NCBI GenBank assembly: GCA_951406725.2
Contig: OX597836.1
Span: 25,978,001 to 26,042,000 of the forward strand
Length of the DNA: 64,000 nt
Direction: 5' to 3'
Source: Octopus vulgaris
Taxonomy: Eukaryota
Shown piece by piece: positions 19,398 to 60,771 of this stretch (position 1 is the stretch's first letter; every line of letters starts with the position of its first letter). Position numbers and translations under genes: made by a program. A model generated the notes under the pieces. It ran no database searches and was not told where the DNA came from. It saw only the letters and a list, made by a program, of their open reading frames with translations.

Positions 19398-20413
19398 CAT
19401 ACACTTATGTATGTATGTTTGTATGTATGCATTTCATGTATTTGTGTAATTGTCTCTCATCAAAGCAGTTCCTCGGCTCGGCCTCAACTGAATGACTGGA
19501 ACAACTTGATGAATATATTTTACCTTGTGTGTGTGTTTGTGTGTCTTTGTGTTTATCTGTGTTCGCATGTCATTACGAGCAGTTTATTAATGCAAACCAT
19601 TTCACCTATACTTTTGTCGAGTACAAATTTACTATTTTTAAACAAGAATATTATTGGCAGTAACTCGGAAGTTTCGACCGTCTAAGCCATATAAAATCAA
19701 AATAGCGGATTATAGTTAATTAATTAATCCTTTAATTAATAACTGAAACAATATTCCAGCTTTTGCCTTCATAAATATTACTTAATTCTATCTACCGCTC
19801 AACGGTAAACCTGTGCTGCGGCAGCTCATTGTCTGGGAGCAACTTATATGGAGACACGCTCACTGGTTCATTTGCTTTGGGGGTTCGGGTTCGGGTTCCA
19901 TTTTCCCAGAACTTTCCAAGAGTTTCTATTTTGTAACGTAGAGTTCATGTAATATTTTATTACTTGTGTCCTTTCCCATTTTGTTTTTGTTTTCATCCAC
20001 GTGACATCATTATTTGTAACCACAAAATACTGCAAAATCCACTGATTTCAGTTGCTGCTGCTGTTGCGGATGTTGTTGTTGTTATTTTGATCGAAAAGAT
20101 GGTGGTTGTTTATCTTTTTAACTCTAACACAGAAAATATGGCAGCGAAGAAATTGTTTGCCGTGATTGAGGGAGATAAGATTTCGAAGGAAAAATAAATC
20201 TCTGGAGTTAAGACTAGAGATTATATCTGAGTCGATAGTCGATGTTATTGGCTGTTGCTTTTATAATTGTACACATTTAAACGAAGATAATGGAAAAAAA
20301 TTTTTCTTGTGAATTTTACAATTTTTTTAGCTTATAGTTTGTATGTTTTCCCTAAAACAATCTAAATTTGGAATTTATCGGAAGCCAGATATTTTGAATG
20401 TTCTGATAACATA

Positions 20414-20455
20414 AATAATAATAATGATAATAATAATAATAACGATAATAATAAC

Positions 20456-20520
<65 letters not shown>

Positions 20521-20569
20521 TAATAATAATAATAACGATAACAATAATAATAATAATAATAACGATAAC

Positions 20570-20623
<54 letters not shown>
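20414..20623. repeat. (AAT)n microsatellite
   Basis: Direct reading. Confidence 0.95.
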
Positions 20624-21201
20624 CACCACCCTGAGGCTGTAACTGAAGGAGAAAATGTAACCATTCTGTGGGACTTTCCAGTACATACAGACCGAACCAT
20701 CAAGGCCAATAAACCAGATATTGTTGTGAAAGACCAAAACAATAAAGTTTGCTTATTGATAGACATGAGCATCCCCTGTGATCATAATATCTCAGCGAAA
20801 GAGTTTGACAAGCTCAGAAAATATAAAGACCTACTCATTGAAATTGAGAAAATGTGGCATCTCAAGGCGGTTACAATACCAGTGATCGTAGGAGCACTAG
20901 GAATGATCAAGAAGGGAACCGAAAATTATATGAGAATGATCCCTGGCTTACCATCCCTGCAAGAAGTGCAAAAGATTGTCTTAACTGGTACATCACACGT
21001 ATTGAGAAGAGCATTGTCGATGTGAGAACTGTTGCTGCTCATGTATTTTAATTTAACTTTAAAAAAAAAAATTTTTTAAATGAACGAACTACTGAGTTTG
21101 GTTTAATGGCCTACCAATGTATACTATGAGTTTCTTTGCCCTAGGAGTCGGGAAGACACTCGGCAAGAAATGATAGCAAATTTGAAAGAAGAAAAAAAAA
21201 A

Positions 21202-23717: not shown

Positions 23718-24333
23718 GGCGGCGAGCTGGCAGAAAAGGTTAGCACGCCGGGCGAAATGTTTAGCAACATTTCGTCTGCTGTTACGTTCTGAGTTCAAAT
23801 TCCGCCGAGGTCGACTTTGTCTTTCATCCTTTCGGGGTCGATTAAATAAGTACCAGTTACGCACTAGGGTCGATATAATCGACTTAATCCGTTTGTCTGT
23901 CCTTGTTTGTCCTCTCTGTGTTTAGCCCCTTGTGGGTAGTAAAGAAATAGGTATTTCGTCTGCCGCTACGTTCTGAGTTCAAATTCCGCCGAGGTCGACG
24001 TTGCTTTTCATCCTTTCAGGGTCGATTAAATAAGTACCAGTTACGTACTGGGGTCGATATAATCGACTTAATCCGTTTGTCTGTCCTTGTTTGTCCTCCC
24101 TGTGTTTAGCCCCTTGTGGGCAGTAAAGAAATAAGAAACGTTAGCACTCCGGACGAAATGCTTAGCGGTATTTCGTCTGTCTTTACGTTCTGAGTTCAAA
24201 TTCCGCCGGGGTCGACTTTGCCTTTCATCCTTTCGAGGTCGATAAATTAAGTACCAGTTGCGTACAGAGATCGATCTAATCGACTGGTCCTCTCCCCCAA
24301 AATTTCCGGCCTTGTGCCTAGAGTAGAAAAGAA
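23718..24333 (+). mobile_element. SINE A trimer bounded by one TSD pair
   Basis: Three cores in tandem; 16-bp TSD tatttcattcactgaa at 23702-23717 and 24334-24349. Confidence 0.92.
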
Positions 24334-27040: not shown

Positions 27041-27080
<40 letters not shown>

Positions 27081-27115
27081 CATGTTTGTGTGAATGTATG
27101 TTTACATGAATATAT

Positions 27116-27505
27116 ATAATTGTCACTAAATATGACAAAGGATTTAGAACACCAACATTGCTAGAAATAAGAGCTAAAAAGCTCTAAATCTTTAGTTAAA
27201 ACACGTAACTCTATAGATATGTACTGACAGGGACGGTAATCGCCTGAAAACACCGGTCAAGAATTCCCTATACTGATCGGTCAGTTTCGGCTAATTCCGT
27301 AGCCTCATCAGTAGGGAGCACTCGGCTCGGCTGATTCTGGACATAATTCTCTGTCAGTACATATGTAGTCACCATAAAAATCTATGGATGATTTAGCGAA
27401 TCGCTAATCTGTATCCAAAAAATTCATACAAACAATGTGTTATAATGTGTTGCCAAAAAATAAAACCATAATTGTCACCAAATATGACAAGGGTGTTAGG
27501 ACACC
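27116..27505 (-). mobile_element. Non-autonomous HHR-bearing element (retrozyme or Penelope-pLTR-like), 352-bp unit
   Basis: 38-bp imperfect direct repeats at 27116-27153 and 27468-27505; internal 17-bp inverted repeat 27217-27233 / 27348-27364; central HHR; microsatellite flanks. Confidence 0.75.
27265..27317 (-). ncRNA. Canonical type I hammerhead ribozyme
   Basis: tcccta-CTGATGA-GGCTA-cggaat-TAGCC-GAAA-CTGA-ccga-TCAG-TA-taggga; all core residues and three perfect stems present; GUA triplet. Confidence 0.92.
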
Positions 27506-27542
27506 TTTTTGATAATACATTGCACACGGCTATCTATATATA

Positions 27543-27598
<56 letters not shown>

Positions 27599-27619
27599 CA
27601 TTATGCATACATACATACA

Positions 27620-27650
<31 letters not shown>

Positions 27651-27726
27651 GTGTGTGCGCACGATTGTGTGTGTGTATGCGTGTGTCTTTATGCGTTTTT
27701 AATGTATATACATATATACATTTATA

Positions 27727-27774
<48 letters not shown>

Positions 27775-36235: not shown

Positions 36236-36340
36236 TTCTCACAATTAATAAGAAGAATGTCTATGAACGCCAAGTCTGAAGTATGGAAAGGAAGAAGAAC
36301 CACAATTCACGTGTTGTTACAACTGTAAGAAGTAACATAT

Positions 36341-36704
36341 CTATTTCTTTACTACCCACAAGGGGCTAAACACAGAGGGGACAAACAAGGACAGACAAAG
36401 GGATTAAATCGATTACATCGACCCCAGTGCGTAACTGGTACTTAATTTATCGACCCCGATAGGATGAAAGGCAAAGTCGACCTCAGCGGAAATTGAACTT
36501 AGAACGTAACGGCAGACGAAATACCTGTTTCTTTATTACCCACAAGGGGCTAAACATAGAGGGGACAAACAAGGACAGACAAAGGGAGTAAATCGATTAC
36601 ATCTACCCCAGTGTGTAACTGGTACTTAATTTATCGACCCCGAAAGGATGAAGGGCAAAGTCGACCTCGGCGGAATTTGAACTCTGAACGTAACGACAGA
36701 CGAA
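36341..36704 (-). mobile_element. Headless SINE A dimer bounded by one TSD pair
   Basis: 16-bp TSD gtaagaagtaacatat at 36325-36340 and 36705-36720. Confidence 0.92.
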
Positions 36705-59826: not shown

Positions 59827-60244
59827 ACGGCGAGCTGGCAGAAACGTTAACGCGCCGGGCGAAATGCTTAGCGGTATTTCGTCTGCCGTTATGTTGTCAG
59901 TTCAAATTCCGCCGAGGTCGACTTTGCCTTTCATCCTTTCGGGGTCGATAAATTAAGTACCAGTTACGCACTGGGGTCGATGTAATCGACTTAATACCTA
60001 TGTCTGTCCTTGTTTGTCCCCTCTGTGTTTAGCCCCTTGTGGGTAATAAAGAAATAGGTATTTCGTCTGCCGTTACGTTGTGAGTTCAAATTCCGCAGAG
60101 GTCGACTTTGCCTTTCATCCTTTCGGGGTCGATAAATTAAGTACCAGTTACGCACTGGGGTCGATGTAATTGACTTAATACCTATGTCTGTCCTTGTTGG
60201 TCCCCTCTGCGTTTAGCCCCTTGTGGGTAATAAAGAAATAGGTA
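59827..60244 (+). mobile_element. SINE A dimer, 184-bp period
   Basis: ggtat recurs at 59873, 60057 and 60241; the two units are near identical. Confidence 0.93.
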
Positions 60245-60771
60245 TGTATGTATGTATGTGTGTATGTATAATTGTGTAAGATTTCTGACGCATAAAGATC
60301 TCGTGTGCGCAGCTTAATTTAACTTTGCGTATGAGTGGAACTGGAATAAATCGTTTGTGCTTCGTGTACGAAATATGTGAGGGTGGGGTGCGCTCACGCT
60401 CGCATGATTGTATATATGTGCGTGTGTGTGCGCACGTGTGCTTTTTAAATCTAGATAAACGCACAACATGAAAGCCTCAAAGTCACTGACACAATTAAAA
60501 CACACCATAATTAAATGATGATTACAGAAGATGGTAATTGCCAATGAAATATCGACTTTCTTTCAGCCGAAAAATCACTAGAGACGACAAGCTAATTTTA
60601 TGAAACTTTACTGAATAATCTAAAAGCGTACTTAAGTAGAAACGCGAGTGTGCGTGCGAGTCTGTGTGTGTGTTGATGTGCGTGTGTATGTGTAACAAAC
60701 TTTTCGTCAAGCATACATATACGTATACACATATACATACACACATATATATATATGTGTGTGTGTATGTA

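Follow-up and report, generated by a model that had tools for sequence, protein, structure and literature searches.

The 64,000-nt window analysed here carries one head-to-head inverted insertion of a 352-nt unit, which reaches position 27539. We consider it likely that the locus is an old insertion of an ORF-less hammerhead element that was mobilized in trans by a Penelope-like element (PLE). As the unit appears to work in the manner of a retrozyme, forms no tandem arrays in our sample and shows a PLE insertion signature without an ORF, we class it as a PLE passenger that is non-autonomous and retrozyme-like. The features of the locus are given below; unit coordinates (u) are circular, with u1 at 27270, and S1 and S2 are two recurrent 3' ends of the family.

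27116..27506, minus strand: long arm, 1.1 turns of the 352-nt unit, stopping at the tail-less 3' site S1 (u155-156)
27504..27539, plus strand: short inverted arm, a tail of ~36 nt (u160-197), stopping at the second 3' site, S2
27116..27153, no strand: terminal redundancy, copy 1, run-on past one turn and no boundary repeat
27468..27505, no strand: terminal redundancy, copy 2, run-on past one turn
27045..27115, no strand: left flank, (TG)15 microsatellite and TA-rich join
27540..27771, no strand: right flank, (TA)n/(TACA)n microsatellite, the likely target
27265..27317, minus strand: type I hammerhead ribozyme motif with a 6-bp stem I, intact core, 5-bp stem II and 5-bp stem III
27270..27271, minus strand: predicted self-cleavage site after GUA, by hammerhead consensus
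27253..27330, minus strand: stem I extension beyond an internal loop, 27330-27321 paired with 27261-27253
27217..27364, minus strand: outer stem, 27364-27348 with 27233-27217, containing the compensatory pair u263:u50
27272..27312, minus strand: core (27312-27307) bound to the 3' strand of stem III (27277-27272) in a predicted inactive pairing

The long arm runs for 390 nt and ends at S1 at 27116, the inverted arm runs for 36 nt and ends at S2, and the two overlap by 3 nt (27504-27506) at the head-to-head junction. The short arm (27504-27539) is 89% identical to the family (locus L001, 1889-1924) and lies within an nhmmer match at 27498-27551 on the plus strand. An earlier, sequence-only reading missed this inverted piece and ended the element at 27505. 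It had also described 38-bp imperfect direct repeats, 352 bp apart, as the bounds of the element. The repeats themselves are present (27116-27153 and 27468-27505, 87% identity), but copies run head-to-tail past one turn by varying lengths, with an overlap of 0 to ~200 nt among other copies, and the repeats are thus run-on rather than element ends. Long terminal repeats, target duplications and recombinase sites were rejected as readings of the 38-bp repeats, since the overlap length varies by copy and the repeat is internal unit sequence. A 6-bp ttgtca/tgacaa hairpin was found where that reading had placed it, although it depends on u134, which is off the column majority in both window repeats. 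No convincing ORF had been seen in the unit, in agreement with a longest ATG ORF of 35 aa.

All parts of the complete type I hammerhead that had been described on the minus strand were located. Stem I pairs UCCCUA (27317-27312) with UAGGGA (27270-27265), the core CUGAUGA occupies 27311-27305, stem II spans 27304-27289 and is followed by GAAA, and stem III (ACUGA/UCAGU) and the GUA triplet lie upstream of the predicted cut at 27271/27270. A cut after GUA is the hammerhead consensus. A type I descriptor matched once in the 64-kb window, compared to no match in 300 order-2 Markov controls of 64 kb, and the segment 27210-27370 folds with a z-score of -4.8. The claimed extension of stem I past an internal loop appears in the predicted fold, and it is decayed in the window copy. 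The outer stem, described as 17 bp, is present with 16 of 17 bp paired and a mismatch at 27231. Rfam models did not recognize the motif: nothing in the window reached a gathering score, the best scores being 22.9 bits for Hammerhead_3 (cut-off 48.5) and 19.1 for RAGATH-1, and a genome-wide search with Hammerhead_1 did not place the locus among the best 73 of 263,217 candidates.

The source genome (2.8 Gb, 227 contigs) was searched with four DNA queries that returned 241 to 2223 first-look candidates, three of them 1333, 1593 and 2223, and the best 40 of each were scored. After self-hits and pattern duplicates had been excluded, 117 fetched loci were mapped, and overlap removal left 94 distinct ones. 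The genome therefore holds at least 94 dispersed copies of the ORF-less unit, with over 2,000 further candidates unscored. Arms longer than one unit account for 34 of the 113 that end at S1 or S2, and these wrap through the same head-to-tail junction; the longest copies are 554-558 nt (1.6 units). The predicted cut is spanned by 89 of 153 arms, which argues that the template was not a cleaved linear monomer and was instead a circle or an uncleaved longer RNA. An apparent excess of exactly unit-length copies was discarded because it is confounded by query choice. The circularly permuted, longer-than-unit copies, together with the stem covariation described below, bear out the earlier suggestion of a non-autonomous, ORF-less, hammerhead-bearing retroelement; the two-unit tandem arrays that might have accompanied them are absent from the 94 loci.

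This absence bears on an unlikely alternative, namely that the family is a classical non-LTR retrozyme whose dispersed copies are monomers derived from long tandem arrays that are missing from our sample or from the assembly. The unit itself (352 nt, GC 38%, type I hammerhead, no ORF) lies within the range given for non-LTR retrozymes (170-400 nt, GC below 45%) and agrees with the description in the available text of PMC7229834, and monomers scattered beside arrays are described in the part of 10.64898/2026.07.22.740005 available to us. One sampled locus, L131/L136 (contig C1:101005243-101005690), has two complete hammerheads in tandem, 339 bp apart. Against this reading, none of the 94 loci contains two full units, the tandem-array length (two or more units) of non-LTR retrozymes. 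A spaced 11+11-base pattern for adjacent units also had no match genome-wide; at ~11% decay we estimate that it would catch roughly 8% of adjacent pairs, so that long arrays are unlikely and a few dimers may exist. The L131/L136 tandem is the only sampled locus listed with a layout that could release a monomer.

The evidence for mobilization by a PLE is the geometry of the insertions. The 5' ends are scattered, occupying 34 of 36 ten-base bins. The 3' ends of 153 arms are concentrated in two places, with 23 in u151-160 (14 of them exactly at u156) and 75 in u181-220. We defined S1 as u150-157 and S2 as u181-216, ~40 nt apart; these limits were chosen after inspection of the data, and S2 is blurred by its AT-rich likeness to the target. 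One family query selected tail-bearing arms. The 64 loci with a single orientation comprise 51 that end at S2, 10 that end at S1 and 3 that end elsewhere. The remaining 30 of the 94 loci are inverted, all of them head-to-head and none tail-to-tail. These comprise 17 S1+S2 pairs, one S1+S1 pair, no S2+S2 pair and 12 with an end elsewhere, such that 17 of the 18 classifiable inversions are tailed on one arm only (binomial p = 7e-5, with class limits set post hoc). A microsatellite adjoins the 3' end in 57 of 76 cases for S2 and 26 of 35 for S1, compared to 427 of 2820 random flank windows; for both sites together the figures are 83 of 111 against a background of 15%.

Variable 5' truncation, fixed 3' ends and partial tandems are thus combined with head-to-head inverted arms bearing a 30-40-bp tail on one arm and with a bias towards AT-rich or microsatellite targets, as in Penelope insertions. 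The available parts of earlier accounts describe inverted pseudo-LTRs (pLTRs) of Penelope-like elements with a 30-40-bp tail on one arm (PMC3846280; 10.1101/2021.04.23.441226), and a PLE protein that nicks and extends both strands at AT-rich DNA from two internal template sites that delimit the tail (PMC11167929). We had read the inversions at first as L1-style twin priming. This was replaced by the Penelope two-site reading because u156 is a recurrent end that is also used in 10 of the 64 single-orientation loci. The choice between a retrozyme and a Penelope remnant that the sequence-only reading had posed does not divide the evidence, as the family shows the Penelope tail and inversion footprint though no ORF is attached.

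From the insertion geometry we infer that a PLE reverse transcriptase started at two internal template sites. The hammerhead-sense strand would have been transcribed as an RNA of more than unit length. The ribozyme could then have cut partial tandems to a 352-nt monomer, and we lean slightly towards this having been circularized; the alternative is an uncleaved tandem transcript. The circle step is weakened by the in vitro finding, in the available part of PMC11167929, that ribozyme cleavage is dispensable for PLE insertion. A PLE protein would have nicked a TA-rich microsatellite on both strands and primed one cDNA from each, using as start points u156 and u190-200, which lie ~40 nt apart on the template. 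At the window locus, one cDNA would have reached 390 nt, copying the whole intact ribozyme and exceeding one turn by 38 nt, and the other only ~36 nt before both were joined head-to-head at the 3-nt microhomology. Neutral decay of the window copy would have followed. The redundant ends do not tell a circular from a tandem template: the two passes differ at 342 of 1900 sites, and the 28 variants shared between them are no excess over the 25.7 expected.

A bolder and tentative version holds that the family preserves the traces of a Penelope reverse transcriptase that rolled round a ribozyme circle of 352 nt, with a dimeric enzyme priming each of the two target strands at its own template site, the sites being 40 nt apart, and a built-in hammerhead switch stopping the circle from cutting itself. 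If true, this would be direct footprint evidence of retrozyme-type circles as PLE cargo, obtained without helper homology.

The postulated switch relates to the predicted fold. The 5' strand of stem III repeats the core-adjacent ACUGA, and ViennaRNA pairs the core to the stem III 3' strand with a probability of 0.96, compared to 0.04 for stem III. The active fold lies 1.6 kcal/mol above the core-blocking fold (2.9 in subfamily B), in linear and circular RNA alike, with a model that omits tertiary energy. Dominance of the core-blocked state is our working hypothesis from this model. The 5-bp stem III, compared to 1-2 bp or none in most metazoan and PLE hammerheads (PMC4209133, available part), is predicted to favour activity as a monomer. 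Monomer cleavage is nevertheless uncertain, since the core-blocking fold is predicted to dominate. Blocked hammerheads are noted in plant retrozymes, viroids and some mussel circles, and not in most animal ones, in the available text of PMC7229834.

Sequence variation indicates that folding was important to the mobile RNA. Linked variants split the family into subfamily A, with 48 rows, and subfamily B, with 27, as illustrated by an alignment of 12 copies. The two differ at 13 of 165 positions (u250-u62). Two pairs have changed in a compensatory manner: u322:u331 in stem II is U-A in 43 A rows and A-U in 25 B rows, and u263:u50 in the outer stem is G-C in 27 A rows and A-U in 15 B rows. One further change keeps a stem I pair (C-G to U-G/U-A). 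The remaining differences affect seven unpaired positions and break one terminal pair, with none in the core. With random placement, two compensatory pairs have p = 0.003 and at most one broken pair has p = 0.001. These compensatory changes show that the fold was under selection while the element was mobile, on the strength of a few events between two masters rather than many independent ones.

PLEs with GIY-YIG and reverse transcriptase domains are abundant in the genome (6136 candidates, 148 matches, many 781-aa open frames). Some end at (TA)n, and sampled ones carry minimal hammerheads with a 2-nt loop III. An alternative reading is that the unit is the solo pLTR and tail of an ordinary autonomous PLE and was never mobile by itself. 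Such a reading would account for the insertion footprint, which is that of PLEs, and 3 of 72 loci do have PLE fragments at most 1.5 kb away, with a weak case at a fourth. However, arms longer than a unit continue into a further turn of it rather than into an ORF, no reverse transcriptase and GIY-YIG ORF is attached to the unit in the 94 sampled loci, and 48 free 5' flanks from 72 loci share no sequence, PLE sequence included, beyond general repeats. The nearest PLE (L026/L167) begins mid-ORF behind a (TA)n spacer and has an end unlike the unit; it is a separate insertion from the family copy L026. The minimal hammerheads of the sampled PLEs likewise differ from that of the unit. For the sampled copies the solo-pLTR reading is thus largely refuted, and we regard it as improbable overall. 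A partner for the passenger that we favour was also sought directly. The unit profile found nothing in 40 GIY-YIG loci, a small sample of the 6136 candidates (best E 2.3), and the unit was absent beside 30 Rfam Hammerhead_1 matches save for one unrelated decayed family copy.

Across 68 arms, the mean divergence from the column majority is 11%, and that of the window copy is ~8%. Young members were sought among the scored copies and none was found, the best match between copies being 83-86% over the unit and 92% over 111 nt. In three unstranded RNA libraries, of which ~6% each was covered, 675 raw reads and 38 contigs aligned at 80% likeness and none at 99%; neither an end pile-up nor a 352-base back-joint was seen in this material, which may not retain circles. 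The divergence of the window copy makes present activity unlikely, and the ~11% divergence among copies together with the lack of any RNA read matching the locus makes the family look extinct, as it probably is. We conclude that the window copy is an old, decayed and dead insertion. Its ribozyme follows the family column majority for 51 nt, from 27316 to 27266, within a ~8%-diverged copy, and it is among only 3 of 63 hammerhead rows in which the core and all 14 tested pairs are intact; retention by the host for RNA processing is nonetheless a very remote prospect, as the copy was picked for its intactness, an estimated 1-2% of copies would be intact by chance at 8% decay, its stem I extension is decayed and no read or contig was 99% alike. 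The exact 51-nt sequence occurs at only two places in the source genome. Most of the reads that aligned to 27115-27312 derive from one other, rearranged family copy with a changed ribozyme core, which has good coverage in all three libraries and is probably a passenger in a host transcript.

The family resembles several known systems, each of them described here from the available parts of its sources. Metazoan non-LTR retrozymes (Cervera and de la Pena 2020; PMC7229834) are ORF-less, low-GC units of 170-400 nt with a type I hammerhead, the mussel repeats being 350-390 bp; like our family they are highly self-paired, permuted head-to-tail and co-occur with PLEs, which the same source proposes as their helper. 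They form dimers to large multimers, yield abundant circRNA and have a ribozyme that is mostly free to fold, whereas our family consists of dispersed 0.1-1.6-mers, has a core that is predicted to be self-blocked and showed no expression in ~6% of three RNA libraries. It also displays a visible PLE tail and inversion footprint, unlike the non-LTR retrozymes described there. Li, Clavereau and Pollet (10.64898/2026.07.22.740005) likewise conclude that a hammerhead unit rides on PLE machinery, and dispersed monomers also occur among their retrozymes. In that source the vertebrate retrozyme-PLE link is argued from co-occurrence and pLTR homology, in contrast to the integration geometry, without homology to a sampled PLE, on which our case is built; by its rule of two consecutive complete units our family would not count as active.

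The family also resembles endonuclease-bearing PLEs (Penelope/Poseidon, Neptune). Both are truncated at the 5' end, occur as partial tandems and carry a hammerhead in the repeat; in both, inverted insertions have arms that meet head-to-head, only one of which bears the tail of 30-40 bp, the targets are AT-rich or microsatellites, and two start sites for reverse transcription, putative ones in our family, lie downstream of the ribozyme cut (Arkhipova 2013, PMC3846280; Craig 2021, 10.1101/2021.04.23.441226; Frangieh 2024, PMC11167929; available parts). The family differs from these PLEs in having no ORF. Chlamys elements such as MRC1 are likewise ORF-less and PLE-type, with pLTRs and head-to-tail insertions, but those of the MRC1 type resemble an autonomous partner at the 3' end, whereas no partner was found in our sample, and Chlamys elements are mostly without hammerheads, whereas the ribozyme is central here (10.1101/2021.04.23.441226, available part). 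Our literature search found neither such a family in cephalopod-type genomes nor tail and inversion footprints for retrozymes; descriptions of either may exist in Repbase or Dfam, in subscription papers or in the supplements of PMC7229834 and 10.64898/2026.07.22.740005. Mobility of animal retrozymes has previously been argued from co-occurrence and pLTR homology. The evidence from the present family is of another kind: a unit with a hammerhead and no ORF bears the full Penelope footprint, and in its classifiable inverted insertions a tailed arm is almost always paired with a tail-less one. The family also supplies a 352-nt template with two mapped start sites that could be put through the in vitro PLE assay already in use, as well as an animal hammerhead that has a long stem III and is predicted to block itself.

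Several other elements were observed during the analysis. A young PLE family (L057, 2245-4587, and L058, 2164-4506, contig C16) has many 781-aa open reverse transcriptase/GIY-YIG frames with a CxxxxCxxC linker, and is Neptune-like by that motif. By eye, its pLTR seems to carry a minimal hammerhead whose core is a U3-A8 variant; CCAAT/TGACGT-like repeat arrays precede it. In a second PLE family (L060, 4806, plus strand; L063, 2740, minus strand) the minimal hammerhead core is CCGAAGA. The PLE at L167 (880-2406), 5'-truncated and of a further family, lies in the (TA)n tract that also contains L026; by eye, it has a minimal hammerhead-like motif of its own. Another abundant hammerhead family (L172, L174-L181, L183-L187, L189-L196) combines a short stem III with what look like two 3' ends and with partners in inverted orientation; a tblastn search, for which five frames served as queries, found no PLE frame within 1.5 kb of these loci, and the group is possibly a second non-autonomous family. 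The loci L169, L170, L173, L182 and L188 form a hammerhead family with a stem II insertion of ~60 nt. Within the window, the plus-strand frame 20366-21025 ends in what we take to be the C-terminal restriction-like endonuclease of a non-LTR retrotransposon, and 23769-24133, 36337-36704 and 59873-60245 are dimers of a 184-bp SINE-like repeat.
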